NCBI GenBank assembly: GCA_964589835.1
Contig: CAZPUU010000001.1
Span: forward strand, 1 to 44,565
Origin: an uncultured Gammaproteobacteria bacterium
Lineage (GTDB): Bacteria; Patescibacteriota; Microgenomatia; Levybacterales; GWA1-39-11
DNA length: 44,565 nucleotides
Direction: 5' to 3'
The notes below the pieces were generated by a model. The model was not told the DNA's origin. It saw nothing but the letters and a program-made list of their open reading frames with translations, and did not search any database. Of this stretch, positions 2,191 through 27,125 are shown piece after piece. How positions within the stretch are numbered: the stretch's first letter is position 1; each line of letters opens with the position of its first letter. The position numbers were made by a program, and so were the translations under genes.

Positions 2191-3474
2191 TCATTTCTTG
2201 CTATTTTTATTCTTCAGTTGATAGAGATAGTATATATATGACTGCGGATCTCCTTGTACAAATTCGACTTTTTGATGAGCTTCTATTTTCTGAGAGACGG
2301 CCTTTCTGTGCGCAGACAGACCCATAGGACCCATCTCAGTGAAATGATACAGATTCACAAAAGCATAATAGCCCAGAAAAATTACAATTACGGCTTTTAC
2401 AAGTAATTTATTAATTGAAAAAATTTGAACAATTAAATATGCAAAAACCATAACAGCAACCGGACGGCTTATTGCAAAATAATAATTTGTAATTTCACCC
2501 GAGTAAGTAGAAAAGGCAAGCCATGGCACTAAGACCCAAATTATCGAAAGATATCCAATCAAAAGGTATTCCTTTTTTCTCTTAGAGAAAATTAAATACA
2601 AAAAGGCGATAAATGAACCTACCGAAAAATAAAGTGCGTATGGAAATCTCAATATGGAGTTAAATTCAATAAACCCATCTCCGATGATCTGTATAAACCT
2701 TCTTAAATGAAATCCATGGAATGTACTCCCCAAGTAGCTCGTCGCGTTACCGCCTGTTTTGGTTTGCAGATAAGAAATTGCAATTGGAGCTATAAATACC
2801 AAGAGCACAGGCAGAGAGTACAAACCGTACTTTAACGTCTCTTTTTTGCGGGGAATGAAAGGCAGTGCAAGCAGAAAAAGTACAATATAAAATATGGATG
2901 TAAAATGAATATGAAGAGAAAACCCAAAAGCAGCAGCGAGTAAGAAAAAGTATTTCATTTTTCCCATGCAAATTTTATAGATACTTAGAAAAAATAGTAA
3001 AGAAATTGGAACGATAAAATTAACAGGCCATTGCACGCGGTCCAATTCAAAAATGTAAGCTGATACGGTATTGATAAATACCGCAGCCAAAGCTACTTTT
3101 TCATTAAAAATACTTCTTACAACAAAAAACACCACAAAGAAAGTAAATATTGCAGTCAAACCGGCAACAATTGGAGAGGCGATCGGATCCATACCGGTTA
3201 TGAGATAAAATGGTACCAATAGGTAGTAGTAGTACGGGCCGATATAAAATCCCGTATTCCCTTTTGCTTGCATCCCTACAATTGGAAGCTTCCCGTCGAT
3301 AACAATATTCTTAACTGCCCATGCGTTGTCTACCTGATCATATCCAAACCCACTTTTCGTCTCCGGTTCAACAAATCGGGTTATTACCAGAAGAATAAAT
3401 AGCCCACAAAAAATGCTGAAAAGCATATTGTTTTTAAAATATTTTTTTACAATCTTATTCAATTTTTTATTCAT
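2191..3474 (-). CDS. Polytopic membrane protein, divergent PMT_2/ArnT-like GT-C candidate (family B)
   Basis: 427 aa, hydrophobic throughout. The first-loop block GFGYDQVDNAWAVKNIVIDGKLPIVGMQAKGNTGFYIGPYYYYLLVPFYLITGMDP is collinear with WGFDHGREYLMVRDII..PILIGTPLG..GIFHGPGYYYLLTIPYILFGGDP of the adjacent gene. The C-terminal GDPQSYIYYLYQL resembles the family A tail motif. Confidence 0.55.
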   Translation of the reverse strand: MNKKLNKIVKKYFKNNMLFSIFCGLFILLVITRFVEPETKSGFGYDQVDNAWAVKNIVIDGKLPIVGMQAKGNTGFYIGPYYYYLLVPFYLITGMDPIASPIVAGLTAIFTFFVVFFVVRSIFNEKVALAAVFINTVSAYIFELDRVQWPVNFIVPISLLFFLSIYKICMGKMKYFFLLAAAFGFSLHIHFTSIFYIVLFLLALPFIPRKKETLKYGLYSLPVLLVFIAPIAISYLQTKTGGNATSYLGSTFHGFHLRRFIQIIGDGFIEFNSILRFPYALYFSVGSFIAFLYLIFSKRKKEYLLIGYLSIIWVLVPWLAFSTYSGEITNYYFAISRPVAVMVFAYLIVQIFSINKLLVKAVIVIFLGYYAFVNLYHFTEMGPMGLSAHRKAVSQKIEAHQKVEFVQGDPQSYIYYLYQLKNKNSKK

Positions 3475-4985
3475 TTCATTATTCTTTTTTGGATGATAAT
3501 TCCACTCGTCAGTCTTTTTTCAAACACAACTTCTCCGTCTTTCACTACCGTTTCCATCCAGCCCCTATAACTCCACGGTTTTGACCCATCTACCTCCATT
3601 AATAAATAAAATGTTCCTTTCTTGTCTTTGTGTGGTTTGTACCCGTATTTTTTCACGCCATACCATTCAATTAAATAATCATAAGGATATGTGTAGACAG
3701 GGGGTGTAAAAATCAGCAATCCGAATTTTTCCCCTTTTGCATCTTTATATATAAAATCTATGGCATCCGTTTTACCCTTGATCTTTGCGTCACCGCCATA
3801 ATCTGCGATGTCATACGTAATCATAGCCGTATTTTTTGGAATGGTGGAAATAAAGAAAAAAGCTACGACAATGCAGTATAAGTAAAATATTACTCTCATT
3901 TTTTTGATCTTATATAGTCCTACGATTACATAAGCAAAAAGGAATATATAAACAACATTGAGATGATAGAGATAATAATGATAAACAGTGTTTCTCAAAA
4001 AAGACAAAACAAAAAAAGTAATAATCGGCAACGATGATAACCAGATAAAAAAGGTTTTCTTTGGGGCTTTTTCATTTCTTACCAAATAAACAAAAGGGAT
4101 AGCAATAAGGGCGAATATAATCAGTGCAGGTATGACGGATTGGGCAGGAAAAGTATTTCCGACATTATATAAAAACGACCAGAAATGATCTATAGAATTG
4201 GCAACAAATGTTGTTTTATTTTTTCCCGTTTCGTGAGTTGTAAGGTATTTCAGTATCCCATTAACGGCCATGAAATTGTGACGCACTTCAAATAGCATCA
4301 TCGGAAGATATGCAGCTATAAATCCGCCGATAAGAAACATGTAAGGCTTTATCGTTTTCTTAAATGTAAAAATCGAAAGAAAAATAAGAGAAAGAGTTAT
4401 GGGTATAGCAATTGCAAATTCAAAGTTATAAATAAAACCTCCAAAAAATGCTGAAAGAAATATAAATAGCATTTTCTTGTCCTTAGCCGATAAAAAAAGA
4501 TAGGTAAAATAAAAGCAAAGAACAATGAATAAAGTCGAAGGATGAGGACTCCACAAAGAGCGGGATTGAGCAATAATCTCAGGCGATAACGAAATAAAAG
4601 CGGTAGCAAGGAGCGCTCCCAGACGTGGAAATATTTTCCTCGACAGCAGGTAAAAAACAACTAGTGCACTTACCCCGTAGGTATACATCAGTAAAAGCCC
4701 ACCGTATGGGTCTCCCCCAAATAAAATATACGGAATAGTTAAAAGGTAGTAATACCCAGGTCCATGAAATATTCCCTGTATACCCGCGGACCCTGCCCCA
4801 AGCGGTGTTCCGATAAGTATCGGATTTTTATTCTCAATTATGTCACGCACCATGAGATATTCGCGTCCGTGGTCAAACCCCCAAAGATAATTTTTATTTA
4901 TAACCTCGACGGAACGCGCGACAACACCGATACCTATGAGTAAAATGAGGATTATAGTTGTCAGTTTGATTATTATTTTTTTCAT
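3471..4985 (-). CDS. Polytopic membrane protein, divergent PMT_2/ArnT-like GT-C candidate (family B) with a C-terminal soluble domain of about 130 aa
   Basis: 504 aa. Paralog of 2191..3474 (shared GFD..., GP.YYYLL, G.DP blocks). It has ATGA overlaps with both neighbours. The non-hydrophobic tail runs YDIADYGGDAKIKGK...WSYRGWMETVVKDGEVVFEKR. Confidence 0.55.
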   Translation of the reverse strand: MKKIIIKLTTIILILLIGIGVVARSVEVINKNYLWGFDHGREYLMVRDIIENKNPILIGTPLGAGSAGIQGIFHGPGYYYLLTIPYILFGGDPYGGLLLMYTYGVSALVVFYLLSRKIFPRLGALLATAFISLSPEIIAQSRSLWSPHPSTLFIVLCFYFTYLFLSAKDKKMLFIFLSAFFGGFIYNFEFAIAIPITLSLIFLSIFTFKKTIKPYMFLIGGFIAAYLPMMLFEVRHNFMAVNGILKYLTTHETGKNKTTFVANSIDHFWSFLYNVGNTFPAQSVIPALIIFALIAIPFVYLVRNEKAPKKTFFIWLSSLPIITFFVLSFLRNTVYHYYLYHLNVVYIFLFAYVIVGLYKIKKMRVIFYLYCIVVAFFFISTIPKNTAMITYDIADYGGDAKIKGKTDAIDFIYKDAKGEKFGLLIFTPPVYTYPYDYLIEWYGVKKYGYKPHKDKKGTFYLLMEVDGSKPWSYRGWMETVVKDGEVVFEKRLTSGIIIQKRIMK

Positions 4986-6661
4986 TTTTCTGCAATAACA
5001 ATCGCCTCATTCCCGTCAGGATAATAGATCACATTTCTACGCCCGGACTTCTCGTTCAAGTCTCTTGGTCTACCCATTAGTAAAATTTTACCCCCATCTG
5101 ATACCTCAGCGACCGATCTGAATTTGAAATTGTAAAAACCTTTATGCTCCTCCTTAAATCCTCCGCTTTTCGTTCCCCCAAGACTTTGATAATAAGAAGG
5201 ATCAACACGGAGATAAAAAAGAAAAAACATATATGACTGGTCGAATGGAACCTGATTCTCAACAACAACCTGATCATATTCATTTCTAACCGAATTAACG
5301 GACGCAATAGCCTGCTTGTATCCGTATAACCAGTCTTGAGCATTGTAATAATTTAATTGAACAAAATATTGATTTAGAAAATACAAAAAATTGATTAGTG
5401 CAAGCAACACATACACAAGAGCAATGCATCTCAGTCCCAAAGATTGCAGCTTTTGCCTCTTCTCGAAAACAAAAATACAAGCCGCAACCAAACCAATCGA
5501 GATAAATAATTCCCATGTCCAGGCAAAATTAAGCGTTCTCACTGCGTGCGGCACGCCGCTTGTAATAGATGCGGGAACGGGAACCAATAAAAAGTATCCA
5601 AAAAATGCGAGTTTATAACGTCGATCAATCTTCAGATAAGTAAATAAATAAATCCCGAGAAGTAAAAACGGTAGCTCAAATATATATAAAAGACCCATAA
5701 ATGGCGCATGATGCCTTGCCAAATCTCCAGTAATAAATAACCAGTTAGGATCAAAATGCGAGATGTACCCTGCAACTGTTGCCTTGGCAAATTCGACTCT
5801 CCGGTTATCTATTACCTTACCTAACGCGTACCCTGTTTTCTCATCATTCAAAAGCTTTTCGGCAGATCCCTCAACAACTGATTGTTGAGAAAATACACTG
5901 ACTCCTTTTGCCCTCATCAGAGCATTGCTATTTGTTGCAATGTAAATCAACAATGGTAATGCCGTGATAATAGCAACAATTCCCGAGAATAATATCCACT
6001 TTTTAATTTTAAGAATGCTTTTGTAAAAGATTGCGGACAACAAAATCATAAGCAAAGGAGAAAAAACTCTTTCACTTTGATACATATGAACATTTGCAGC
6101 TGCTATGAAAAACGAAAATGGCAATAAATAGTGTTTTTTAATACCTTTCAGAAATAAAAGAAACGCTAGCAAATTAAGAGTAAGACCCACATTTGACTCA
6201 TACGCAACTCTTGAGAATTGAATATGCCATGGAGATATTGAAAGCAAAAATGCACACACGAGTGCAACAATAGTAGTCGGTATTTCTTTTTTCAGGATTC
6301 TGATTCTCGAAGATCCCAAAAGCTCCAACACTAGAAAATACACGATAACCACAGCGCTGATTCCTGCCAACATCGAAGGTAAACGCACCGCCTGCTCTGT
6401 CAAACCAAGAACAGCCACAAAAGGAATTGCAAAATAAACATACAATGCCGGCTTATAATCGTCAAAGGACTGCAACACTACCGGTAACAATTTCCCGTAT
6501 TCATCCCTGCCCGTCATAAGTATCGAATATGCATTGTAACCAAGCGATGCCTCGTCCCAGTTGATACTTTGCGGGACACTTCCCAGTTGATAACCTCTCA
6601 AAAGAACCGCAAGAACAACTATAAAGAGAAGTGCAAAAATAGGTTTTGTTAGTATTTTCAT
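4982..6661 (-). CDS. PMT_2/ArnT-like GT-C membrane glycosyltransferase (family A)
   Basis: 559 aa. Motifs: SINWDEASLGYNAYSILMTGRDEYGKLLP (acidic first-loop motif), ISPWHIQFSRVAYESNVG, IDNRRVEF...HFDPNWLFITGD, and tail QSYMFFLFYLRVDPSYYQ. Confidence 0.8.
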   Translation of the reverse strand: MKILTKPIFALLFIVVLAVLLRGYQLGSVPQSINWDEASLGYNAYSILMTGRDEYGKLLPVVLQSFDDYKPALYVYFAIPFVAVLGLTEQAVRLPSMLAGISAVVIVYFLVLELLGSSRIRILKKEIPTTIVALVCAFLLSISPWHIQFSRVAYESNVGLTLNLLAFLLFLKGIKKHYLLPFSFFIAAANVHMYQSERVFSPLLMILLSAIFYKSILKIKKWILFSGIVAIITALPLLIYIATNSNALMRAKGVSVFSQQSVVEGSAEKLLNDEKTGYALGKVIDNRRVEFAKATVAGYISHFDPNWLFITGDLARHHAPFMGLLYIFELPFLLLGIYLFTYLKIDRRYKLAFFGYFLLVPVPASITSGVPHAVRTLNFAWTWELFISIGLVAACIFVFEKRQKLQSLGLRCIALVYVLLALINFLYFLNQYFVQLNYYNAQDWLYGYKQAIASVNSVRNEYDQVVVENQVPFDQSYMFFLFYLRVDPSYYQSLGGTKSGGFKEEHKGFYNFKFRSVAEVSDGGKILLMGRPRDLNEKSGRRNVIYYPDGNEAIVIAEK

Positions 6662-8265
6662 AAGGTATACGCGACAAGAGTAACTTTACCGTTAAGCAAA
6701 CGGAATTCTCTTAAAACACTTGCACCCTCGGGCTTTTCATCGGGCTTTGCTATATAAAGTGAGTTTTCCTTTCGTATATCACTGATTTTTGCAGTAAAAT
6801 TGATGTTCGAAAATTTATTGACATGGACAAATCCCAAAGGTTCGCGGTAAATATTAGCCTCTCTTCTAAAGTCTTGAGGTTTGTATTTTAAATAGAAAAG
6901 ATAGTAAATATACGGTCTCCCGAGTGATTCGGTAACATAAATATCTTTGTAATTTTTTTGTTGGCCGGCGACATACGCAACTGATTCTTTATATCCGTAC
7001 TGCCACTCACCGGAAAACTGACGCGAATAGTGTGCTAAATAATTATGAATAAAATACCCGAACTGAAGAAAAATAATAATCCCTATTAAAATACAAGCAT
7101 GCATAAATAATTTTTTTGGGATCAACTTGAAGGAGGTGATTATTCCAATCGCAGTCAGTATCTGAAATGCAGGCAATACGTTTTCTACCCTGAGTGCATG
7201 CGGAGTTTCACGGGCAAATCCGGCCGGAATTATTCCGATAATAATAATGGTGGGAACGATCCACCAGTAACCTTCTCTCTTTCTAAAAAGCGTTAAGATA
7301 CCGATTACCAAAAACGGTATCTCCCACATATATAATTGCCCGATGTCCTGAATTGAAAATTTTGGATTCCCGTCTCCTTTAACAAAAAGGAATTGTGGCG
7401 TTAGATTGTCAAAATAATGCCTTAGATACTCTACCCCATACGTAAACCTGCGATTATGAATTACTTTTGAAAATAAAGAATTATTGTCATTTGTAACTTC
7501 CTGATTCGTTCTGTTGATCAGTCCAATATCCGAAAAAATGTTCACTTCCTCAAACCGTAATTTTGCTTGGGGTGTATTAATAAATAATAACAATGGCAGA
7601 AAAACGAGAAAACCAACAGCCAGAGCCGCAAGAGCATATCTCAATTCTTTTACTAATTTTTTGCGGAAAATGATACTCAAACAAATAACGAGCAAAGGAA
7701 CAACTATTCTGGCACTGTTGAAGGTATACATGGAAAGAACAAACGAAAGAGCCGAAAAAATGAAATATTTTGGATTTTTTCGAATGGCTATAAAGAACAA
7801 TAAAAGACCTAAGAGAATAAAAAAGTGAGCAACATTTGCTTCAAATGCAGCCCTTGAAAGCATGATATGCCATGGAGAAATGGCGAGTAGAAATGTGGAA
7901 ATGAGTGCGATGGAATTTTTTTTGAATATTTCTTTAACCAAAAAATACGTTAAAAACACGCTTAAGGTTCCAAAAAAAGCAGATGGAAACCTTGTAGCAA
8001 ATTCTGTCAAACCAAAAAATTTGACAGGTATAACACCAAGATACGCATATAAAGGAGGCTTAAAATCACCAAAAGACTCAATAAATGTTAGAGGTAACAA
8101 TTTCCCGAACTCATCTTTCAAATCAATACCTAGAGTATATGAGTTGTAACCCCAGGCAGCCTCATCCCACGTCAGTGAAGGAGGAAGATTTCCAATCAAA
8201 AGAAATCTAAGAATAGCGGCTATAATAATAATCGCAAGTAATAATATGTTATTTCTTTTTAACAT
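6658..8265 (-). CDS. PMT_2/ArnT-like GT-C membrane glycosyltransferase (family A)
   Basis: 535 aa. Motifs: SLTWDEAAWGYNSYTLGIDLKDEFGKLLP, ISPWHIMLSRAAFEANVA, IHNRRFTYG...FLFVKGDGNP, and tail GRPYIYYLFYLKYKPQDF. Confidence 0.8.
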   Translation of the reverse strand: MLKRNNILLLAIIIIAAILRFLLIGNLPPSLTWDEAAWGYNSYTLGIDLKDEFGKLLPLTFIESFGDFKPPLYAYLGVIPVKFFGLTEFATRFPSAFFGTLSVFLTYFLVKEIFKKNSIALISTFLLAISPWHIMLSRAAFEANVAHFFILLGLLLFFIAIRKNPKYFIFSALSFVLSMYTFNSARIVVPLLVICLSIIFRKKLVKELRYALAALAVGFLVFLPLLLFINTPQAKLRFEEVNIFSDIGLINRTNQEVTNDNNSLFSKVIHNRRFTYGVEYLRHYFDNLTPQFLFVKGDGNPKFSIQDIGQLYMWEIPFLVIGILTLFRKREGYWWIVPTIIIIGIIPAGFARETPHALRVENVLPAFQILTAIGIITSFKLIPKKLFMHACILIGIIIFLQFGYFIHNYLAHYSRQFSGEWQYGYKESVAYVAGQQKNYKDIYVTESLGRPYIYYLFYLKYKPQDFRREANIYREPLGFVHVNKFSNINFTAKISDIRKENSLYIAKPDEKPEGASVLREFRLLNGKVTLVAYTL

Positions 8266-9865
8266 AAACGCTTAAACTTGTTCCTCCGTCGGCTGCCATA
8301 AATTTGACTATCGGCTCTGCATCAATATATCCACCCGGGACGATTACTAGCGCCTCCTGCGGCAAGGTTTCCAGATAGTCAAGATCTCCTTTCTCTTTAA
8401 TTAAGTTACCTATGTATAGATTGTCGAGATTGATGTATCCCTCATTCAATTGTACGCTTTTTCTGTATGCAGATTGGAATTTTTGCGGATCAACTATGTT
8501 GTAAAAAGCATATAAAATTGCCCAGTCCGGCCCTCCGTGAATTATTACCGGTGAATCTTTTTTTGCGGCATAGTAAAGCGCCTCTTTTTGGGAGTATCCC
8601 CACCAGTCTCTTGAATATATTGGATACGAAAAGTAATAGTTATAAAAAAAGTAAGCAAAAAGAATCGATGAAATAACAAAAAATGATACTATAATCGGTG
8701 TTTGTCTCTTGAAATACGAATACATTACAAAAAAACCGAATGCACTTATTAATAGAGGGGGGACCAATGCATTTACATCTCTGTAGGCGTAGTTGCCGTT
8801 CATGGTTATTGCTCCTGGTATAAGACCAAGAGCCATCCAACCTGCCAATAGAAAAAGAGCTTTCCGGTGTTTTCGCCATAGCGCAAATAATCCTACGATG
8901 AATGCAGGTAGTTCAAATAAATGATACTGTCCATAATTTCCAATTCCTTTATCCAGATTGTTTTCCCCGTTCACAAATAGATAATTCAAAGATAGTGGAT
9001 TGATATAAATATTCGTGAATTCCCGAATGTAGTAGGTCGCCTTGTTGCTGAATATACCCGAAATTGAAAGGGGTACTAATGAATTTGTCCTTTGCATATC
9101 AACAATCCTTTTGGCTCTTGCGTTGTTAAATATGCTGACATTGTGAAATTCTGACGCACCTTCGCCATTAAGTGCAAGATAAGCAACAACACTACACGAC
9201 ACCGCAAATAAAAGGATTGAGACTGACATAAAAATTTTCATCGCAAAAATCCTCTTAAAATTGCTGAGAAATAAGACTAAGAGTATCAGTGGGGTCACTA
9301 TTTTTGCGGGATGATATGAGAAAAGGGAAAGAGAAAAAGCAACAGACGAAATAATCAAGAAATATTTCCGTTCTTTACTCAATTCAAAAAACAATATCCC
9401 GGAAGCAACTAACAGACACGAGAGTTGCACCTCAAGACCGGTCCTGGAGAGATGTATCGACCATGGATTTATAGCGGTCAGAAATGCCGCAATAATTGCA
9501 ACATCATCCCTCAACAATAATTTTTTTGCAAGAAAATAGACGCAAAGGATAAGAAGAGTCCCGAAAACCACAGAAGGAAAGCGCTCAGTTACCGGATTTA
9601 ACCCGAACAACAGAACAAAGGGAATTACACTATAGGTGTAAAGTGGCGGGCGGTAATTATTCGCCTGATCTTGAAAATGAAGCGGCCATGCGTTTCCATA
9701 TGGATCCATACCCGTCTCAATAAGAGTGAGCGCGGTGTATCCCGTATCTGCTTCGTCTGCGTGCATTGCGGGGGGATTAGTTGACAGAAATATAAAACGG
9801 AGCAGAAATCCGATAACCAGAATCACTCCTAACAAAAATGCTCTTTTCCCGGTTAATTTATTCAT
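8249..9865 (-). CDS. PMT_2/ArnT-like GT-C membrane glycosyltransferase (family A, most divergent of the tandem trio)
   Basis: 538 aa. Motifs: AMHADEADTGYTALTLIETGMDPYGNAWP, INPWSIHLSRTGLEVQLS, LNYLFVNGENN, and tail DWAILYAFYNIVDPQKFQ. Confidence 0.75.
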   Translation of the reverse strand: MNKLTGKRAFLLGVILVIGFLLRFIFLSTNPPAMHADEADTGYTALTLIETGMDPYGNAWPLHFQDQANNYRPPLYTYSVIPFVLLFGLNPVTERFPSVVFGTLLILCVYFLAKKLLLRDDVAIIAAFLTAINPWSIHLSRTGLEVQLSCLLVASGILFFELSKERKYFLIISSVAFSLSLFSYHPAKIVTPLILLVLFLSNFKRIFAMKIFMSVSILLFAVSCSVVAYLALNGEGASEFHNVSIFNNARAKRIVDMQRTNSLVPLSISGIFSNKATYYIREFTNIYINPLSLNYLFVNGENNLDKGIGNYGQYHLFELPAFIVGLFALWRKHRKALFLLAGWMALGLIPGAITMNGNYAYRDVNALVPPLLISAFGFFVMYSYFKRQTPIIVSFFVISSILFAYFFYNYYFSYPIYSRDWWGYSQKEALYYAAKKDSPVIIHGGPDWAILYAFYNIVDPQKFQSAYRKSVQLNEGYINLDNLYIGNLIKEKGDLDYLETLPQEALVIVPGGYIDAEPIVKFMAADGGTSLSVYVKKK

Positions 9866-11828
9866 TCTTATTTATTATTCTATCAATTTTTTGAGAATTC
9901 ACTTTGAGGATTTTTACCTCTTTATTTTTGTAGATTGTATCCAAGAATTGGGCTGACTCAGTCGAAGCGATGCCCGCACTTTTTCCAAGAATTATGTAAG
10001 AAATATTACTTTTTTTGATTGCCAGAACAGCTTCACTTGTTGTGCCCGTCAAGATCTGCGACTGAATTGCCTCCTTCTCATCCGTAGCAACTCCGTGACT
10101 CGCAAGAATTTGCGTACCCGATAGATACATTGGCTGCTGACTAAAATAATGTATATATGGACTTTTCTGATCAAGAATAAAATATTTGTGATCGATAAGC
10201 GTCAAACCTTTCTTTTGAGTTTTGAGAAAATTAAATGCATTGTATTGATTTGTCGTTATCAACTCGGCTTTATGATTCAAAAGCCTCTCGATATTAAGCT
10301 TTGTTTCCTGGACGACTCTTGGTATTGTAAGACCGATAATAACAAGTGCAACTGTTACTGAAATCTTTTTATTAAAAGAGGTAAGCCAAAAAGCGGTTGC
10401 TGCTGTATAAATACTTCCTACAATAAAAACGTTGACTGTAAAATTAAACGTATTCGAACCGCCCGATGTTTGCTGAAAGAAAAATCCCACAATAAGGCTC
10501 GGAATAATTCCTGCAATAAGAAAAACATGTAGTTCCGGCAGGAACATATGAATAGTTTTTCTCGATTGGATAAGTCCGATTAATTTCGTTCCAAAAAGTG
10601 AAAATACTACAATGCAAAAATAAAGAATTTCAAAAAAGAATGCCTTGAAATACTTGTTGTCATCCAAAAAAACCCGCCTGGCAAGTTCGAGCCGCTCGAG
10701 CTGAAGGTAGGGCTGGACAATGAAGTTCTCAAAAAACCAAAAAGAAGTAAAGTACAATCCTCCGGCTCCACTGTTGACCGGTAAATAGAAAATGAGCGCT
10801 ACCAAAAAACAGCTTGCACTCAGAAGAAGATTTTTAAATTCACGTTTCACAATCCAAAAAAGTGAAAGAACACCTACTCCGAGCAAAGCAAAAATACCAA
10901 CATACACCTTAAAACCAATGAGAGTACCTATCACAATGCCGATTAAAAAAATAAGTAAAAAGTTCTTCTTATTTAGCAGCCAATATTGGAGTAAGCTCAA
11001 TCCTCCAAAGAATTGGACCAGTGCAAATGCTCGTGGAGGGTTACTTAAAAATTTCGTACCATCCTCCAACGAACCCATACTGAAATAATTCGTCCCTTTT
11101 TGAAGAATTACCATTAACAACCAAATAAAATCCCCCCCAAAATAGATAAAAAATAACAACCACAGAGAATAACGTATTTTTTTTGTAACGGTAAGCCCGA
11201 ACGACAGCACTGTCAGCCCAAGCATTACGGGGAGATAAATTGATGAGAATTGGTACTGAAGAATATTTAGAGGAATTACAAATACCCTGCTTAACTCTGC
11301 TGTGAATATATTTGAAAGATAATGATAATTTTTTACAATTACCCCATAAAGACCGGGTTCGAAAGGAGGTATATTTTTTACAATTTCGGAACTTAATGCA
11401 AGGAAATATAAATTATCACTCACATCTACACAGCAAAGCGAGATACCTTTAGGTCCCAGAACGCCGGTGAGTATTCCGAACGAAATTTGCATGAGGGAAC
11501 CTATCGCGATAATAATAAGCGGAAGCAAAAGCTTTTTTTCGGGTAATAACCTGATTTTTACACCTCTCAGTTGACGAATTGAAATTATTACCATAGCCAA
11601 GATGTAAAGATACGTAAGAAACCGTATATGCAAAAAGCCGAATACAAACCCTTGAGATACCCAGAATGCAGCTCCTACAACGAATGAAAGGGCGAAAAGA
11701 ACAACAGGTGGAAATTTTATAGCGGTAAGCCTTAGAACAACATTGCCCGGAATAAATACAGCAAGAATTGTTGCTGCAAAAGAATACAAAAGTAGAAATA
11801 GAAATTCAACGGAAATTATGTTGTACAT
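9858..11828 (-). CDS. Uncharacterised large polytopic membrane protein (family C), GT-C-like architecture; paralog of 24244..26214
   Basis: 656 aa, the same length as its paralog. Shared blocks: LH(I/L)RFLTY(L/I)Y, an acidic loop (VDVSDN vs SADDT), FPP(F/I)EPG..G..V.NYHY.SN...AEL.RVF, LEDGT.FL.N.PRAF, GSLIGFKV, PVN(S/A)GAGG, ELARRV. It has a C-terminal soluble domain of about 120 aa. Confidence 0.45.
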   Translation of the reverse strand: MYNIISVEFLFLLLYSFAATILAVFIPGNVVLRLTAIKFPPVVLFALSFVVGAAFWVSQGFVFGFLHIRFLTYLYILAMVIISIRQLRGVKIRLLPEKKLLLPLIIIAIGSLMQISFGILTGVLGPKGISLCCVDVSDNLYFLALSSEIVKNIPPFEPGLYGVIVKNYHYLSNIFTAELSRVFVIPLNILQYQFSSIYLPVMLGLTVLSFGLTVTKKIRYSLWLLFFIYFGGDFIWLLMVILQKGTNYFSMGSLEDGTKFLSNPPRAFALVQFFGGLSLLQYWLLNKKNFLLIFLIGIVIGTLIGFKVYVGIFALLGVGVLSLFWIVKREFKNLLLSASCFLVALIFYLPVNSGAGGLYFTSFWFFENFIVQPYLQLERLELARRVFLDDNKYFKAFFFEILYFCIVVFSLFGTKLIGLIQSRKTIHMFLPELHVFLIAGIIPSLIVGFFFQQTSGGSNTFNFTVNVFIVGSIYTAATAFWLTSFNKKISVTVALVIIGLTIPRVVQETKLNIERLLNHKAELITTNQYNAFNFLKTQKKGLTLIDHKYFILDQKSPYIHYFSQQPMYLSGTQILASHGVATDEKEAIQSQILTGTTSEAVLAIKKSNISYIILGKSAGIASTESAQFLDTIYKNKEVKILKVNSQKIDRIINKNE

Positions 11829-11831
11829 GTG

Positions 11832-13070
11832 TTATTTCGAGGTTCTTTCTTCCGGCCAGAAATACGCAACTAAAAAAACCATTGTGAGATAACCCATATG
11901 GCTATTGTTAAAGTAGCGTGACATATACCAATAAACAAAAGCAAGCAATCCATAGGTAAATAGCAACATCCTGATGCTTGGGTGTTTTCTCAACAGTGCA
12001 AGAATCGCGATCAATAGTGGTGTTACAACAAGCACCTGCCAAAATATAAAAGGGTACGGTGCGTTCAGGTCTTTAATAACTCCAAGTTGGTGCAAGAGGC
12101 TCCCGAGTCCATAGCCTGAAATGGGATAACTGTGAAGGGTATTACCGGAAAGATAAAAAACAGTACTATTCAAAAACGCCTCCGGATTCCAAAGAAAAAA
12201 AGGAACGCTAAAAATTACACACGTCACAACGAAGGACGCCAATCTTTTTGCAGTGATTTTAATATTATCGGATATGAAATAAAGATAAGCAAAATACAAC
12301 GGCAAAATCGGCCAAATAGACTGTTTTACAACAAATGCAAGACCTACAAGAATTCCCGACATGGTAAATCTTTTTTTTGCCAGGAGGACAAGACCGCCGA
12401 ATAAAAAGGCGAACATGAATACATCGGACCTTCCCTCGAGGGTGTACGAGAACATGGCAGGGTTAAGCGCCAAAAGTGTCGTGAACAATATCTTTTGCTC
12501 CCGATCCCGAACGATACGAAATGCCATTATGAGTAGTGATAAATAAAGAAAAAATAGTGGAATTCTGCCATCGAAATATCCGATTGTATGATTTGAAATA
12601 TAGTAAAAAGGCAAAGAAAACAGCAGATAGAACGGCATCATCACAAAATGATAAAGCGCCGGATTAACCGACGTTTCACTGTAATGCCAAGCTGCCATGA
12701 ATGTATTGTGATAAGTCGCGGCCCAAGGATTGATGCCATCCAAAAAGAACCGGATGGCAGCTTCAAGCTGCAAGATAATATCGTGAATTTGAAAAACAGG
12801 GGCAACCTTGTGCCGAACAACAATTGCAGATACAAAAGCGCCGCCAACGGCAAGTGCGAGAATTGACCAGAAAAGAATATTTTTGTAAAAATAATACCTG
12901 TTTTCAGAAAGCTTCACCACATCCAAAAGAAATGTAAGAAAGAGGCATAAGAAAATAAGGCCGAATTGGATGAAATTCGTGTCTCCCGGAAATATCTGGT
13001 AGGTCATAACGATTGGCACAATAAGCGCTGCCAATACTACACTCGAAAGCGAAAGGCGCATATTTTTCAT
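11832..13070 (-). CDS. GT87/DUF2029-like polytopic membrane glycosyltransferase candidate (family D)
   Basis: 412 aa. Loop motif IHDIILQLEAAIRFFLDGINPW, then ALNPAMFSYTLEGRSDVFMF. This resembles the D....G.NPY / LNP....G..D pattern of PimE-type GT87 proteins. ATGA overlap with the upstream GT2 synthase-like gene. Confidence 0.5.
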   Translation of the reverse strand: MKNMRLSLSSVVLAALIVPIVMTYQIFPGDTNFIQFGLIFLCLFLTFLLDVVKLSENRYYFYKNILFWSILALAVGGAFVSAIVVRHKVAPVFQIHDIILQLEAAIRFFLDGINPWAATYHNTFMAAWHYSETSVNPALYHFVMMPFYLLFSLPFYYISNHTIGYFDGRIPLFFLYLSLLIMAFRIVRDREQKILFTTLLALNPAMFSYTLEGRSDVFMFAFLFGGLVLLAKKRFTMSGILVGLAFVVKQSIWPILPLYFAYLYFISDNIKITAKRLASFVVTCVIFSVPFFLWNPEAFLNSTVFYLSGNTLHSYPISGYGLGSLLHQLGVIKDLNAPYPFIFWQVLVVTPLLIAILALLRKHPSIRMLLFTYGLLAFVYWYMSRYFNNSHMGYLTMVFLVAYFWPEERTSK

Positions 13071-18074: not shown

Positions 18075-18151
18075 GTCTCGTCTTTATTTTACAATAATTA
18101 TCGCAAAGTCGCGCTATAGCAAGATATTAGAAAGTATGATACAGTAAAAAA
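18075..18151. promoter_or_regulatory. Divergent intergenic region, putative promoters for the 18074->1 operon and for the small plus-strand gene
   Basis: 77-nt gap between divergent start codons. Plus strand: TATGAT at 18135..18140, 11 nt before the ATG. Minus strand: TAAAAT 11 nt before the ATG at 18074. No convincing -35 elements. Confidence 0.3.
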
Positions 18152-21464: not shown

Positions 21465-22623
21465 GACGGATTAATTTTACTATTCTTACAAAACCTGTTA
21501 CTAACAGTATATATATAAATGGAAGAAGTGGGAGAAAGTACCTTGTCGAGGTGTAGCCTGTCGAAAGCATTAGAGAATATCCAACAACCCAAAGGATTAA
21601 GATAATCTCGTATTGTGTAATTTGAATTTTTTTAACAAGAGCAAGAATTGCAGTTGCGCTACTGATAACAACCGCAATTGGCCAGTATATCCTCCATTGC
21701 GGATCAGATAGTATTTCGTACTCACCCCACCATGTATGCCATCTGTTGAATAAAATTAAATCCCAAAAGGAGAAAGCGTTGGTAAATGCCGATTTATGAT
21801 ACGCAAGTATATACTTTTGCACACCAAAAATTTGAATTATAGAATATCCGTCCTGGATAGTCTTCGTATAGGAAAGGAGCAAAACGATGAGCGAGAGTGG
21901 CAGTGTAAGTCCGAAAATCAAGAGCTCCTTCATGCTCTTTTTGAAAAAAAGCAAATAACTACCCATCACAACCACCATTAAAGCACCGGTAACAAAGAAA
22001 CGGATACTTATAACAAATCCCAAAAGTATAGAGGTGACAATGAATGGAAGGATTTTTTTCTGATTCTTTATTCCCAGAAAGAAAAAATAAAACGCAAAAA
22101 TAATAAACGGCAGCTGCACCGGCTCCGGGAGAGGAGCATACAGTAATTTATTCAGAGTCAGTGGTTCATTGGCAAAAATTGCAACCGGAATTAGACTGAG
22201 AAAAATATTTTTTGTTATAAAATATGAAATTAGAAATATTCCCAAAAAAGACAATGACAAGAAAAATAGAATTAAGGTACTAGCGTTATCAAAAAAAACA
22301 ATCGAAAGAGAAAGCAAATATCTTCCCAGCGGTGGATGATCATGAACTATTAAAATTGGGTTCATTCCTTTTAGAAATGCCCCCGCAGCGAAGGATTCAA
22401 ATGTTTCATCCGGTATTATACCCGCACCATCTTTTTTAGCATATTGAGAAGAATAGTAGGCATTCTTGAGATTTTTATACTCATTTGCGTATCCTCCTCC
22501 AAAAAATTTACCCTGATTTTGTACTATCAAATAGAAAAATTGGGCAAATATAAAAGCCAAGGCAATGACAAAAAAAATCCATTTTTCAAATTTGTTGATT
22601 CTTTGATTTTTATTTTTTTTCAT
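21448..22623 (-). CDS. Minimal PMT (GT39)-like membrane glycosyltransferase
   Basis: The first-loop block IIPDETFESFAAGAFLKGMNPILIVHDHPPLGRYLL matches the DE...HPPLGK signature of protein O-mannosyltransferase-type GT-C enzymes. Preferred start is the ATG at 22623 (GGAGG at 22633..22629, 5-nt spacer), giving 391 aa. The track start at 22662 adds 13 aa with no RBS. Confidence 0.65.
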   Translation of the reverse strand: MKKNKNQRINKFEKWIFFVIALAFIFAQFFYLIVQNQGKFFGGGYANEYKNLKNAYYSSQYAKKDGAGIIPDETFESFAAGAFLKGMNPILIVHDHPPLGRYLLSLSIVFFDNASTLILFFLSLSFLGIFLISYFITKNIFLSLIPVAIFANEPLTLNKLLYAPLPEPVQLPFIIFAFYFFFLGIKNQKKILPFIVTSILLGFVISIRFFVTGALMVVVMGSYLLFFKKSMKELLIFGLTLPLSLIVLLLSYTKTIQDGYSIIQIFGVQKYILAYHKSAFTNAFSFWDLILFNRWHTWWGEYEILSDPQWRIYWPIAVVISSATAILALVKKIQITQYEIILILWVVGYSLMLSTGYTSTRYFLPLLPFIYILLVTGFVRIVKLIRHDKAN

Positions 22624-24247
22624 TTTTCCTCCATACAACAACACCAAATACAAAAAGAGCAAGTGCCGTCAAAATGGTAAGAACATTTGAAAGAAGCCGT
22701 AATTTTGTATCTTCAAAAACTACCGCCACATCATACGTTCCTTTTGGTAATTCAAAGGTTATTAAACCCCGTTCGGAAGGATCTTGGAATTGTATCGGAA
22801 GATCTTTCCCTTTTACTCTCGCGTGCCACCCGGGAAAGTAAAGTGTATTTTCCCGCAACCGCGCATTTTCTGTATCAACAATAATTGTATATATGTGACT
22901 TGTTGATGTCCGACTGACTTGTTGGATTAAGGCCTTTCCAGAAATTGTTTCAATCGGCGCTTGCGGTTTTTTCTCCATAAATCGTACCGACCAAATCGGA
23001 GCGCTTTCTCCTGTGTCAGTGGTTCCGTTATATATTTGTTCGTAAAATGAGTCGGAACTTTGCGTATACGCCTTGGCCTTCCAGTAAGGTAGGGTTGTAA
23101 CAAAAAGAACCGTTGCAATCATAACGACACCCCATACTCTTTTTTTCTTCTCCAATAACAATAAGGGGCACGCAGCAAGAACAGCGGAGGCAAAAGCAGT
23201 AAGACTTAAAAATCGCCAAGGGAATTGGAATTTCTTAAATATTGTAACTATTTCGTACACGAAATTTGAAACTGAAAGTTGAATAAATAGAGAAAATAGT
23301 AATACAAGCAACAAAATGAAAAGTAATATCTTTTGAGACTTCTTAATACTTTTCCTGAAAAATAGAAATGGCAAAAGCAATAACCCTGCAATCTGAGCAA
23401 TACCGATCTGAACAGTGAACTGTCCGGTTATTCCGTAATTCCACTCACCATATAAAAATTTCAGCGGATTATCTATGAAACGCGATCTGTATTCATTTCC
23501 TGTCACAATATCACGAAGCGTAAATTTCCCTTCCAAAAAAGCAGGAATTGTAAAAAATCCTGATAGTAAAAATCCGGCAATAAAAAATATCCCGACCATC
23601 AATAGGTGATTATATTTTTTTGAAATGATTGAAAGATATACACCATAAATTATAAAAATTGGAATAAACATAAGGCTGATCGCATTGTGGGAAAGCAGCA
23701 ATAATGCAAAACTCACACTTACTCCTATCAAATCTATTGAGGATTTTTTATTGTATTCATTTCTAAAATAACGAATCATAAAATACAGAACAAGAGGTGG
23801 AAATATAAATGCCATATGTTCTCCGATTGCTCCCCTGACATACAGATCAACAAATCTATAGGGGGCAAAAAGATAAAGAAGAGCTGCTGCAAACCCGACA
23901 TTCTGATCAAACTGCTCCTTTGCCCATAGATACATTGCAATTCCGCTCGCAACATATCCCAATCCAAATATCATCTTCAATGAATCAACATACGAAAAAC
24001 CAATAAAGTGAAAAAATGAAGCTGTATATGAAGAAAAGGGATACAAAAACATCAATATTGGATGACCATATCCCCAGTTGAGAAGCTCTGCCCAGCGAGG
24101 TACAACAACACCTTCAGACAACGCGCGATAAAAGTTTGCAATCCTTGCAACGTGATCTACTCCATCATGAGTTACAGGAAGCCCACCCGGCAAAAGCCCT
24201 GCAAGAGGCAGCAGAGCAATAATAATTAACAATAAATACTTTTTCAT
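22610..24247 (-). CDS. COG5617/'PTPS-related'-like polytopic membrane protein (family F), putative GT-C
   Basis: 545 aa. N-terminal block LPVTHDGVDHVARIANFYRALSEGVVVPRWAELLNWGYGHPILMFLYPFSSY. C-terminal module LYFPGWHARVKGKDLPIQFQDPSERGLITFELPKGTYDVAVVFEDTKLR, then a terminal TM. Confidence 0.5.
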   Translation of the reverse strand: MKKYLLLIIIALLPLAGLLPGGLPVTHDGVDHVARIANFYRALSEGVVVPRWAELLNWGYGHPILMFLYPFSSYTASFFHFIGFSYVDSLKMIFGLGYVASGIAMYLWAKEQFDQNVGFAAALLYLFAPYRFVDLYVRGAIGEHMAFIFPPLVLYFMIRYFRNEYNKKSSIDLIGVSVSFALLLLSHNAISLMFIPIFIIYGVYLSIISKKYNHLLMVGIFFIAGFLLSGFFTIPAFLEGKFTLRDIVTGNEYRSRFIDNPLKFLYGEWNYGITGQFTVQIGIAQIAGLLLLPFLFFRKSIKKSQKILLFILLLVLLFSLFIQLSVSNFVYEIVTIFKKFQFPWRFLSLTAFASAVLAACPLLLLEKKKRVWGVVMIATVLFVTTLPYWKAKAYTQSSDSFYEQIYNGTTDTGESAPIWSVRFMEKKPQAPIETISGKALIQQVSRTSTSHIYTIIVDTENARLRENTLYFPGWHARVKGKDLPIQFQDPSERGLITFELPKGTYDVAVVFEDTKLRLLSNVLTILTALALFVFGVVVWRKNEKK

Positions 24248-26214: not shown

Positions 26215-27125
26215 TTGGGGAAACTTCCTTTACCAAATCTCTTTAAGTAATAATCTTTGACTCCTATTTTTTGCCATTTACGTCCATTGAGTAACAATCG
26301 GAAACTCTCTCGTATAAGCGCGCTCTTTGTTTTGAGTGGAGCGTATTTAACACCGAAAATCAATCTATTGCGAGTTAAATAATAATCATGAAGTTCAGAA
26401 CCCGAGCCGGATGACCCTGCGTTATTGTGCCAAACGATGGCGCGGGGAGCATACATAATTTTGTATTTATTATGTATGATTTTTGCGCTTAATTCAGCGT
26501 CCTCATAATATAGAAAGTATCTCCTGTCAAAAAGCCCGATTTTATCAATCATTTGCTTGCGAAGAAGCAAACAAGCTCCGGTCGCAAACTCTATCTCATC
26601 CGATTCATCATACTGACCCCGGTCTACCTCATCCACACCTTTATGGATGCTCATAACATTATCCCAATCCATATAACCACCCGCATACCAGATCACTTTC
26701 CCTTTTTCCTTTTCATTATATCTATGACCATGGAATTCCCTCCCTTTTGTAAAATATATTTTAGGAACGACAGCACCAACTTTTTTGTCATCCATTGCTG
26801 ACGTCATCTGACGCAGGAATTCCCTCTCTCCCAAAGAATCGTTGTTAAGAAGAAGAAAATAGTCAAATACTTCGTTCCTAACATTTTCGAATACAAAATT
26901 GTGCCCTCCGGTAAAACCGAGATTATCAGCACTTTTCAACAAAGATAAATGTATTTTTTTATAGTTATCTGTATTTAGGTCCAATGTCTCTCTTGACGCG
27001 TTGTCGAGAACATATGTGAGAATTTCAAGACCTGTCAGATCAGAAGACATCAAAGAATCCAGGCAGGCAAGAGTATCCTTATTGCTATTGTAGTGGAGAA
27101 TAGAAATTATGATTTTTTGCATCAA
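26211..27125 (-). CDS. GT2 glycosyltransferase, WbbL/RfbF (rhamnosyltransferase)-like subgroup
   Basis: 304 aa. Motifs: ISILHYNSNKDTLACLDSL, LDNAS, NLGFTGGHN, LLLNNDS, ATGACLLLR, YYEDAELSAK. Confidence 0.75.
   Translation of the reverse strand: MMQKIIISILHYNSNKDTLACLDSLMSSDLTGLEILTYVLDNASRETLDLNTDNYKKIHLSLLKSADNLGFTGGHNFVFENVRNEVFDYFLLLNNDSLGEREFLRQMTSAMDDKKVGAVVPKIYFTKGREFHGHRYNEKEKGKVIWYAGGYMDWDNVMSIHKGVDEVDRGQYDESDEIEFATGACLLLRKQMIDKIGLFDRRYFLYYEDAELSAKIIHNKYKIMYAPRAIVWHNNAGSSGSGSELHDYYLTRNRLIFGVKYAPLKTKSALIRESFRLLLNGRKWQKIGVKDYYLKRFGKGSFPK

Follow-up and report, generated by a model that had tools for sequence, protein, structure and literature searches.

An undescribed family of probable GT-C membrane glycosyltransferases in Microgenomates-type Patescibacteria

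Results

Two genes in the window (the whole 44,565-nt stretch of DNA analysed), here named C1 and C2, quite probably encode extracytoplasmic GT-C glycosyltransferases that use a polyprenyl-phosphate-linked donor, as judged from predicted fold, topology and gene context. The structural models suggest that both belong to a so far undescribed family of membrane glycosyltransferases of the GT-C type (GT-C_A fold), referred to below as family C.

Two paralogues in one gene array

The positions and the 656-aa length given for the two ORFs in a preliminary description of this DNA were exact (Table 1). BLASTP aligned C1 and C2 colinearly from the N- to the C-terminus over 645 columns (31% identity, E 5e-86). 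All the motif blocks previously described as shared were present in this alignment, namely LH(I/L)RFLTY, VDVSDN/SADDT, FPP.EPG...NYHY.SN...AEL.RVF..PL, LEDGT.FL.N.PRAF, LIGFKV, PVN.GAGG and ELARRV.L. C2 forms a separate orthologue group, with its own orthologues at 40–87% identity. On these sequence comparisons, C1 and C2 are anciently diverged paralogues. Their shared length carries little information, since family-C lengths are tightly distributed (median 654, IQR 646–665, 656 being the joint second commonest); the chance of equal length for two random members is P ~0.02.

The assignment of the two genes to different operons could not be demonstrated. Both lie in a single co-directional, mostly overlapping array extending from ~1.1 to 35.2 kb. 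The sole sizeable gap between the C1 and C2 genes is at 18075-18402, and promoter and terminator scans gave background levels.

Table 1. Family-C genes and neighbouring genes in the window
Feature	Coordinates	Strand	Evidence or Pfam match	Position
Five PMT_2 (ArnT/PMT-like GT-C) genes	2191..9865	minus	PMT_2, PMT	directly downstream of C1, 8-nt overlap
Family-C paralogue C1	9858..11828	minus	ATG start, 656 aa ORF	
GT87-type GT-C gene	11832..13070	minus	GT87 3.7e-9	directly upstream of C1
Small GT2, 243 aa	13067..13798	minus	Glycos_transf_2	two genes upstream of C1
PTPS_related/PMT_2-type GT-C gene	22610..24247	minus	PTPS_related 2.4e-13	directly downstream of C2, 4-nt overlap
Family-C paralogue C2	24244..26214	minus	ATG start, 656 aa ORF	
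Two GT2 genes, ~300 aa each	26211..28018	minus	GT2	between Wzx and C2
Wzx/MOP-family flippase	28037..29494	minus	Polysacc_synt_3 2.2e-48	three genes upstream of C2
Small GT2, 237 aa	29521..30234	minus	GT2	just upstream of Wzx

Family extent and sequence relationships

Family C comprises at least 1,650 clusters at 50% identity; its named members come from Microgenomates-type Patescibacteria (CPR) and are annotated throughout as 'hypothetical'. Neither C1 nor C2 matched any Pfam or NCBIfam model at E<=10, so the earlier statement that they cannot be assigned to a named family is correct at the sequence level. Sequence and profile searches of the PDB with both proteins were also empty, any OST included, and none of the sequence or profile methods (Pfam, NCBIfam, PDB profile) linked family C to a named GT-C family. 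The STT3, Dpy19 and Wzy_C Pfam models were absent at E<=10 from C1, C2 and the 92 members scanned, and the PMT_2 and PMT models gave no signal in family C. The use of hhalign to compare family C with the window's YfhO, PTPS_related and GT87 families returned nothing. Two marginal profile alignments to the window's PMT_2 proteins (probabilities 50% and 71%) covered the C-terminal TM bundle together with the C-terminal domain; the N-terminal catalytic halves did not align.

The sole model with recurrent weak matches to family C was Pfam DUF6541 (PF20176; 646 positions, uncharacterised), which is similar to it in overall length. Weak matches were seen for 14 of 46 C1-type and 4 of 46 C2-type members (18/92), in a colinear arrangement pairing family residues 22–153 with profile positions 2–137 and residues 501–629 with positions 479–604. 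The best member scored 28.5 bits against a gathering cutoff of 29, which none reaches, and C1 and C2 themselves had no DUF6541 match at E<=10. Because the short-form sister family described below has no match to this model, the likeness probably lies in a shared long N-terminal architecture. No literature on DUF6541 was found, and the relationship adds no functional information.

The short-form sister family, of ~565 aa and also undescribed, occurs in Woesebacteria and unclassified CPR. Its hhalign alignment with C1 starts at residue 95 (TM4) and runs through to the C-terminus (probability 100%, E 3.5e-43); identity to family C is ~20%, and the Asp, Lys and Gln are retained. TM4 of family C thus corresponds to TM1 of the short-form homologues, in which a single TM helix precedes the catalytic loop, the canonical GT-C layout. 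An H-D...H loop motif, G-L-K-x-Y, F-x-Q-x-G-G...N-T and the C-terminal domain are common to the two families; the sister family has (S/G)-Y-N in place of NYH and has lost LEDG and NPPR. Its gene was seen at two loci, where it lay outside GT-C arrays, adjoining ruvB and a GT1-like gene.

Predicted fold, topology and conserved residues

Two independent no-template AF2 models, one per protein (C1, pLDDT 90.8, pTM 0.91; C2, pLDDT 92.7), were compared with the PDB using Foldseek, with 50 matches listed per model. All eight significant matches to the C1 model were DPY19 or STT3/AglB/PglB (probability 1.0, E 1e-7 to 1.5e-4), after which E jumped to 0.31. The best 28 matches to the C2 model were all GT-C enzymes (probability 1.0) and included DPY19, AglB, STT3, PglB, AftD, ALG12, EmbA/B and, lower in the list, Pmt4, ArnT and Pmt1/2. 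DPY19 was the best match to both models (E 1e-7 to 4e-7). Global TM-scores against solved GT-Cs were modest (0.35–0.45), at ~11% identity. The C-terminal domain of the C2 model separately matched the globular domain of archaeal AfAglB-S2 (3vu0). With GT-C enzymes as the sole significant matches of both models, the early guess that these proteins are GT-C-like is borne out, whereas the suggestion of a novel enzyme class gives way to a confident structural match with a characterised superfamily. Given the GT-C fold of both models, family C would therefore be a new family within a known enzyme class.

Conservation was assessed over 302 full-length members and topology over 85 sequences; residue numbers are those of C1 unless stated. 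For both C1 and C2, 14 TM helices were predicted, with both termini outside, and the positive-inside rule across the 85 sequences agrees with this N-out/C-out model. TM4–TM14 correspond to the canonical 11-TM GT-C core. Three N-terminal helices peculiar to the family come before this core, and an OST-like alpha/beta C-terminal domain of ~140 aa comes after it, in keeping with the earlier picture of polytopic proteins that each end in a soluble domain.

On this predicted topology, the polar residues conserved at 94% or above all lie outside or at the outer boundary. The candidate active site of C1, which faces outward, comprises R69, D138 (conserved in 99% of the 302 members), N167-Y168-H169 (Y168, 100%; H169, 99%), R181, R266, K307 (100%), N352, R384 and Q453 (99%). 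The C2 equivalents of conserved residues are D152, N181-Y182-H183, K319 and Q465. GT-C enzymes are characterised by a large first extracytoplasmic loop with an essential acid (DxD, ExD, DD or a single D/E), by a conserved K/R in outer loop 3, and by another large loop on the outside ahead of the last four TM helices (PMC6801728). Family C follows this pattern: D138 lies in the large first outer loop (116–186) that follows TM4, and is also invariant in the distant sister family; K307 is the sole residue of the TM8–TM9 turn, which is outer loop 3 when counting starts at TM4; and residues 353–392 form another large outer loop just ahead of TM11–14. D138 is found ~22 residues past the TM helix rather than shortly after it, and is a single Asp with no DxD/ExD pair. 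On topology and pattern, rather than on a three-dimensional alignment, D138 and K307 would be equivalent to known catalytic residues.

In the acidic loop highlighted in the preliminary description, only this Asp is conserved. The other acidic positions vary, position 135 being N in 38% and D in 14% of members. Since the early-loop Asp is kept across the homologues and in the sister family, the catalytic interpretation, which had been made to depend on conservation of this loop, was not refuted.

Gene neighbourhoods

GT-C/GT2 arrays hold 41 of the 46 family-C loci, with PMT_2 genes in 37, YfhO in 30 and a small GT2 in 28. A PMT_2 gene is the directly downstream neighbour in 13 of the 46 and lies within 10 kb in 37, while a small GT2 occurs within three genes of family C in 22. 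The gene order GT2s-GT87-famC seen at C1 is repeated at loci L004-L008, L012 and L022. The 243-aa GT2 upstream of C1 gave a full-length match to the Pyrococcus Dol-P-Man synthase 5mlz (E 1.5e-18), further matches to ArnC and GtrB, and sub-cutoff NCBIfam matches to AglJ, PpgS, Dol-P-hexose transferase and ArnC. By these similarities it looks like a polyprenyl-phosphate sugar synthase, and it is the likely source of the lipid-linked donor.

Upstream of C2, the second ~300-aa GT2 gene overlaps the start of C2 by 4 nt. The Wzx protein gave an NCBIfam MOP flippase match below cutoff, and the 237-aa GT2 resembles polyprenyl-phosphate sugar synthases, with near-full-length sub-cutoff NCBIfam matches to ArnC, AglJ, Dol-P-hexose transferase and PpgS. 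The block Wzx-GT2-GT2-C2 is translationally coupled and conserved in L051 and L053. These two loci and the window share the overlapping block GT2s-Wzx-GT2-GT2-C2, and L001 has Wzx-GT2-famC. The proposed association with Wzx thus holds for C2 but not for C1 and its orthologues, since only 6 of 41 C1-type copies have a Wzx gene within three genes.

Discussion

In the mechanism proposed here, the active site would be formed by the outer loop after TM4 (D138, N167-Y168-H169) and the third loop (K307), with contributions from E255/R266 in outer loop B, N352/R384 in loop D and Q453 in loop E. D138 would act as the catalytic or acceptor-activating acid of GT-C EL1, and K307 as the basic EL3 residue binding the lipid phosphate. 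A polyprenyl-phosphate-linked sugar, flipped to the outer leaflet, would be passed with inversion to an extracytoplasmic acceptor, either a cell-envelope glycan or a surface protein. The likeliest donor would be a monosaccharide on polyprenyl monophosphate, synthesised by the small DPMS/ArnC-like GT2 encoded alongside. Family C would therefore act as one step of a multi-enzyme extracytoplasmic glycan assembly line, in which C1 and C2 may differ in specificity. OSTs use pyrophosphate-linked oligosaccharides. Because OSTs are among the nearest structures and C2 is linked in its operon to Wzx, a monophosphate-monosaccharide donor is not clearly favoured for C2.

Monophosphate donors of the kind proposed are used by two of the known systems most similar to family C. 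ArnT/PMT_2/PMT enzymes (GT83/GT39), including the window's eight paralogues, share with it the superfamily, the gene arrays and, if our proposal for family C is right, both the use of polyprenyl-monophosphate sugars and the binding of phosphate by one conserved basic residue; their catalytic loop follows TM1, whereas the candidate loop of family C follows TM4. DPY19, the tryptophan C-mannosyltransferase (GT98), has a polyprenyl-monophosphate monosaccharide donor and resembles family C in length (~650–660 residues) and in its GT-C_A fold; it is eukaryotic and only ~12% identical. DPY19 is not known to carry a C-terminal globular domain. Neither of its motifs, ExE (after TM1) and Rx6LRE (EL2; PMC6801728), occurs in the family-C consensus.

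A rather unlikely alternative is that family C, or at least C2, is a distant analogue of PglB/AglB that consumes a Wzx-flipped polyprenyl-diphosphate oligosaccharide and transfers the whole glycan to a protein, in N- or O-linkage, or to a different acceptor in the envelope. STT3, AglB and PglB (GT66) are among the nearest structures of both models (Foldseek probability 1.0), with a common GT-C_A transmembrane fold. Like family C, they combine a multi-TM domain with a C-terminal extracytoplasmic domain of mixed alpha/beta structure; their first large outer loop contains a conserved Asp, and a large loop lies ahead of the last four TM helices. The C2 neighbourhood also contains a lipid-linked-oligosaccharide flippase, in the conserved overlapping block described above, and Pfam detected no Wzy_C, WaaL or STT3 protein encoded in the window that might serve this Wzx. 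C2 may have an OST-like 'ligase' role, transferring the Wzx-flipped glycan en bloc; it would then be the ligase required by the orphan Wzx. However, there is no detectable sequence similarity between OSTs and family C, which lacks the DK/MI motif. OSTs have 13 TM helices and family C has 14, because of the three extra N-terminal helices that place its N-terminus outside, and the C-terminal domain of PglB is roughly twice as long as that of family C. The window's PMT_2 proteins marginally match the same last-TM and C-terminal region, so the C-terminal domain may not be OST-specific.

The residues that distinguish OSTs also argue against en bloc transfer. In OSTs, the +2 Ser/Thr of the sequon is recognised by a WWD(Y/W)G motif in the C-terminal domain (PMC7226087). 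Downstream of residue 480, none of the 302 full-length family-C members contains WWD or W[WY]D[YWFN]G. The third-loop residue is Lys in family C, as in non-OST GT-Cs, versus Asn/Gln in STT3 and DPY19 (PMC6801728). OSTs carry a DxD/E in EL2 plus a catalytic Glu in EL5. Family C does have an acidic pair, E255-D256, in its second outer loop at the position of the OST DxD/E, but the pair is moderately conserved (71% and 61%, respectively) and lost in the sister family. With regard to the EL5 Glu, E381 of family C is conserved in 74% of the 302 members. Further, DPY19, with its monophosphate-monosaccharide donor, scores equal to or above the OSTs, a nearby Wzx is usually missing for C1-type genes, and neither the window nor any of the four clusters inspected contains an initiating phosphoglycosyltransferase.

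That family C might be a non-enzymatic GT-C-fold protein (a transporter, scaffold or pseudo-enzyme) appears very unlikely. The TM-scores to real GT-Cs are modest, but a few outward-facing polar residues are conserved near-absolutely in the 302 members, a catalytic or substrate-binding signature. Several of them are kept in the sister family despite ~20% identity, and the genes sit inside glycosylation gene arrays. The idea that family C falls outside GT-C, in the O-antigen polymerase/ligase superfamily, and acts as a Wzy-type polymerase or a WaaL/PglL-type ligase, using periplasmic-loop Arg/His on Wzx-flipped repeat units, is extremely improbable: a Wzx is present with no recognisable Wzy or WaaL, and these polytopic proteins do have large outer loops in which Arg, His and Lys are conserved and face outward, but no Wzy, WaaL, PglL or SEDS structure was among the 50 Foldseek matches listed per model, the Wzy_C model gave no signal, and most C1-type neighbourhoods lack Wzx.

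Beyond the preferred reading of family C as extracytoplasmic GT-C glycosyltransferases with a polyprenyl-phosphate-linked donor, it is conceivable, if unlikely, that family C, and particularly the Wzx-linked C2, represents an unrecognised WWD-less lineage of bacterial oligosaccharyltransferases. In CPR bacteria, lipid-diphosphate glycans flipped by Wzx could then be transferred en bloc to polymers of the envelope or to proteins at the surface. If true, these ultra-small episymbiotic bacteria would have a protein- or envelope-glycosylation system that recognises its acceptors by a new logic.

C1 and C2 are ancient paralogues of a large unannotated family

The preliminary description presented C1 and C2, the two family-C genes of the window (see table), as real polytopic paralogues that fit no named family, and this was confirmed: coordinates and lengths are correct, and no sequence relative was found in Pfam-A, NCBIfam or the PDB. 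A BLASTP alignment of the two proteins was colinear from end to end (645 columns, of which 31% are identical and 50% positive; E 5e-86) and contained every shared motif block named in that description. Their equal length of 656 aa, which had been taken as a signal, is a weak coincidence and was rejected as meaningful given the length distribution of 302 full-length relatives, which is tight (median 654 aa, IQR 646–665); 656 aa is the joint second commonest length, and the probability of equal length is about 0.02. Both genes, assigned to different operons in the preliminary description, lie inside one co-directional array in which genes overlap or abut. The sole sizeable noncoding gap of this minus-strand array between C1 and C2 (329 bp, 18075–18402) is a possible internal promoter region; the promoter and terminator scans were both at background (67 versus a shuffle background of 57 ± 7.5, and 22 versus 15.6 ± 4, respectively).

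Coordinates of the genes discussed, in the window unless another locus is named
Feature	Coordinates	Strand	Remarks
C1, family C	9858..11828	-	ATG start, 656 aa
404-aa polytopic protein	21448-22662	-	TTG start, 53-nt overlap with upstream gene
C2, family C	24244..26214	-	ATG start, 656 aa
Divergent PMT_2/ArnT-like GT-C, 577 aa	39305-41038	+	No Pfam match; hhalign versus window PMT_2 100%, E 7e-47
MptA_B_family protein, locus L051	1-995		In a C2-type cluster
Short-form gene, locus L049	1297-2787		Unannotated
Short-form gene, locus L050	9776-11587		Unannotated

Searches of a 90%-clustered database returned 148 relatives for C1 and 85 for C2. Since each paralogue has its own orthologue series (identities range from 64% to 35% for C1 and from 87% to 40% for C2), the duplication is ancient. 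When 1.84 billion 50%-identity representatives were searched exhaustively with a profile, 1,653 were members at E ≤ 1e-3, and 741 of these at E ≤ 1e-30; the family thus has at least 1,650 clusters at 50% identity. Wherever the relatives were named, the source annotation was 'hypothetical protein'. The named sources were mostly Levybacteria, Gottesmanbacteria, Microgenomates, Roizmanbacteria or 'Patescibacteria group', plus one record each under Parcubacteria and Actinobacteria. In species-representative genomes, a scan identified 47 loci with family C, the informative titles among them being Levy-, Gottesman-, Curtiss- and Woesebacteria or Microgenomates. The window, with a GC content of 37.6%, most likely derives from Levybacteria, since the sole named orthologue above 60% identity was labelled Levybacteria. 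Many TPA MAG records with the CPR-type cluster (loci L004–L008, L011, L013 and others) are titled 'uncultured Gammaproteobacteria'; judging from gene content and from the nearest homologues, which are from Levybacteria and Gottesmanbacteria, these titles are evidently placeholders or mislabels. Family C has been duplicated repeatedly, with tandem or near-tandem copies in other genomes: L011 has two adjoining open reading frames of 657 and 656 aa, and L046 has copies of 601 and 652 aa six genes apart. In each of these pairs one copy has diverged greatly, scoring about 90 bits against C1.

Neither C1 nor C2 gave a Pfam-A or NCBIfam match at E ≤ 10, and a scan of their homologues (46 C1-type, 46 C2-type and 21 short-form sequences, the last from a sister family of about 565 aa) produced sub-threshold matches to DUF6541 only. 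These matches, weak and colinear, were confined to the long forms (14 of the 46 C1-type and 4 of the 46 C2-type sequences, none of the 21 short forms), and all fell below the 29-bit cutoff. Our literature search found nothing on DUF6541 (PF20176), which is uncharacterised. One single-sequence and three profile searches of PDB sequences (profiles A1, A6 and A7) yielded noise (E of about 0.6 or higher).

Predicted structures place family C in the GT-C superfamily

Confident AlphaFold2 models were obtained without templates for C1 (pLDDT 90.8, pTM 0.91) and C2 (pLDDT 92.7, pTM 0.93), each being the target of a 46-sequence alignment. In Foldseek searches the C1 model matched eight PDB entries, all with probability 1.00 and E-values from 9.5e-8 to 1.5e-4, comprising the C-mannosyltransferase DPY19 of Caenorhabditis elegans, yeast and human STT3, Archaeoglobus fulgidus AglB and Campylobacter lari PglB; the following match was already at E 0.31. 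Independently of C1, the best 28 PDB matches of the C2 model were all GT-C enzymes (DPY19, AglB, STT3, PglB, AftD, ALG12, Pmt4, ArnT, Pmt1/2, EmbB and EmbA). The models thus show a GT-C fold for family C, and the earlier guess that these proteins are GT-C-like stands. Global TM-scores to solved GT-Cs were modest (0.35–0.45) and identity was low (about 11%); the relationship is therefore at the level of the superfamily, not of the family.

Both models have 14 TM helices followed by an α/β domain of about 140 aa. In the C1 model (residue numbers hereafter are those of C1), TM1–7 span residues 7–34, 41–65, 71–86, 98–115, 187–215, 218–242 and 264–285, and TM8–14 residues 290–306, 308–327, 331–352, 393–419, 431–450, 460–482 and 487–517. 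Across 85 sequences the positive-inside rule was consistent with an N-out/C-out topology at every loop: short 'in' loops had 1.6–5.6 K/R residues, and short 'out' loops at most one, this being the conserved R69 or K307. The polar residues with the highest conservation among 302 members were D138 (99%), N167 (98%), Y168 (100%), H169 (99%), K307 (100%) and Q453 (99%), followed by R69 (97%), R181 (96%), D233, N352 and R504 (94% each). With the exception of D233, which is inside TM6, all of them are predicted to lie at the outer face or the outer membrane boundary, so that the predicted topology shows an outward-facing conserved site. As for the acidic early loop noted previously, a single Asp, D138, was borne out, while its acidic neighbours are variable: at position 135, for instance, 38% of the 302 members have N and 14% have D. 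Just before this predicted catalytic Asp, within the predicted extracytoplasmic loop, 64% of members have two adjoining Cys residues (132–133 in C1; window ~11430–11435, minus strand). In the same region of the short-form family two Cys (C48 and C53) are conserved. The Cys residues of either family may form disulfides or bind metal.

In the pattern common to GT-C enzymes, the first luminal loop is large and bears an essential acidic motif, the second contains R and/or D/E/N/Q, the third has a single conserved K/R (replaced by N/Q in STT3 and DPY19), and another large loop comes ahead of the last four TMDs (Albuquerque-Wendt et al., PMC6801728). Family C fits this pattern if TM4 is equated with the canonical TM1. 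The first loop is then 116–186, with D138; the second is 243–263 plus the start of TM7, with E255/D256, N263 and R266; the third has an outer turn of one residue, K307; and loop 353–392 directly precedes TM11–14. The equation of TM4 with canonical TM1 rests on the short-form sister family, found in Woesebacteria and unclassified CPR, whose members have a single TM helix ahead of the loop and align with family C from residue 95 through the C-terminus (hhalign 98.6%, E 6e-16 with a single sequence; 100%, E 3.5e-43 with a 21-sequence profile). The short form keeps the Asp (H-D-A-L-W-H), the Lys (G-L-K-x-Y), the fourth-loop Arg and the fifth-loop Gln/Asn. Family C therefore consists of a GT-C core of 11 TM helices preceded by a three-helix extension, which puts the N-terminus outside. 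The short-form genes of L049 and L050 are not in GT-C arrays; they adjoin a ruvB-like gene (named by sequence motifs) and a 420-aa GT1-like gene, which suggests a different, possibly housekeeping, role.

The PMT_2 proteins of the window gave marginal profile-profile matches to family C (50% with A1, 71% with A7) spanning the last TM helices and the C-terminal domain; its YfhO, PTPS_related and GT87 families gave none. Family C differs from STT3 and DPY19 in failing their motifs (WWD in the case of STT3) and HMMs, fails the Wzy_C tests and misses the DUF6541 gathering threshold; it is therefore a new family within the GT-C superfamily. Its hallmarks are the three-helix extension with predicted N-out topology, the motif set D...NYH...K...Q and an OST-like C-terminal domain lacking WWD. 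Structurally, family C is a GT-C of an undescribed family and not a new enzyme class; that proposal had been made on the understanding that a structural match to something known would remove it.

Family C lies in arrays of glycan-assembly genes

The window is an exceptional glycan locus with an extremely high density of GT-C-type genes, 19 polytopic ones in 44.5 kb (1069–44516): seven PMT_2 and one divergent PMT_2, three YfhO, four PTPS_related, two GT87 and the two family-C genes. It also has seven GT2, one GT4, one Wzx and one epimerase gene; no initiating phosphoglycosyltransferase, Wzy_C/WaaL, LCP ligase or STT3 was detected in it. The 404-aa polytopic protein, another candidate partner for Wzx, had no Pfam or NCBIfam match and was negative in BLASTP against the GT87 paralogue. 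Because its TTG start overlaps the upstream gene, the true start may be further downstream. Its homologues adjoin PTPS_related and YfhO genes in L013, L021 and L039. Literature searches retrieved nothing on YfhO in CPR or on GT-C in Patescibacteria, and only generic papers for OST in Microgenomates.

Family C was within a GT-C/GT2 array in 41 of 46 loci. Within 10 kb of it, PMT_2 was present in 37 of the 46, YfhO in 30, small GT2 in 28, large GT2 in 26, GT4 in 23; Wzx was found in only 11. The genes were most often ordered GT4-YfhO-GT2(~310 aa)-GT2(~240 aa)-(GT87)-famC-PMT_2 array. The copies from the genome scan were all C1-like or ambiguous in type, and Wzx was three genes away or closer in only 6 of 41 C1-type copies. 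C2-type orthologues were examined by direct look-up (L051, L052 and L053). The block GT2(~240)-Wzx-GT2-GT2-C2-GT2(~250), with overlapping stop and start codons, was present in the window, L051 and L053; in L052 the C2-type gene is isolated. The small GT2s matched polyprenyl-phosphate sugar synthases of the PDB over their full length (Pyrococcus Dol-P-Man synthase 5mlz, E 1.5e-18; ArnC; GtrB) and, in NCBIfam, AglJ, PpgS, a haloarchaeal Dol-P-hexose transferase and ArnC, all under the equivalog cutoffs. The C2-type cluster of L051 includes a protein of the MptA_B_family, the mycobacterial-type polyprenyl-P-mannose-dependent mannosyltransferases. This protein and the GT87 genes hint at an LM/LAM-like logic of extracytoplasmic mannan assembly in these CPR.

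A putative polyprenyl-phosphate-dependent glycosyltransferase

We infer that family C would act as an inverting glycosyltransferase taking its sugar from a polyprenyl-phosphate-linked donor at the outer leaflet. D138 would be the EL1 acid; K307, together with R266 and R384, would form the phosphate-binding site, the sugar/acceptor site would owe its shape to the NYH triad and Q453, and the C-terminal domain may contribute to acceptor binding. As donor we rank a polyprenyl-monophosphate monosaccharide first, because DPMS-like GT2s adjoin, the third-loop residue is Lys and not Asn/Gln, DPY19 is the best structural match, and most copies have no Wzx nearby. A serious rival is that the C2 subtype transfers glycans en bloc in the manner of an OST: C2 is in an operon with Wzx, its C-terminal domain is OST-like and OSTs are among its structural neighbours, but the WWD motif, a criterion taken from PMC7226087, was found in 0 of 302 members and the EL2 acidic pair is moderately conserved. 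We consider it unlikely, though a real possibility, that the subtype linked to Wzx represents a novel type of bacterial oligosaccharyltransferase. Direct membership of STT3 was rejected on the same WWD result. A Wzy/WaaL-type polymerase or ligase, as suggested in the preliminary description, is not supported and was rejected, given the fold result (no WaaL, Wzy, PglL or SEDS among the 50 matches listed per Foldseek search) and the lack of any Wzy_C signal.

Implications for Microgenomates

GT-C enzymes produce N-glycans, O- and C-mannosylated proteins, lipid A modifications, mycobacterial arabinan and teichoic-acid decorations; the surface structures that they make are essential, and the enzymes are drug and biotechnology targets. 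The recognition of family C as GT-C fills an annotation gap in Microgenomates genomes, providing a large dark CPR family with a structure-based annotation that is useful and well supported. If C2-type proteins turn out to transfer glycans en bloc, they could serve as a new glycoengineering tool. The N-out N-terminal extension and the WWD-less OST-like domain represent a natural experiment in the elaboration of the GT-C scaffold. With 19 GT-C-type genes in this window, these tiny-genome bacteria devote a remarkable coding capacity to extracytoplasmic glycan assembly, a process that is probably central to the cell envelope and host attachment of Microgenomates.
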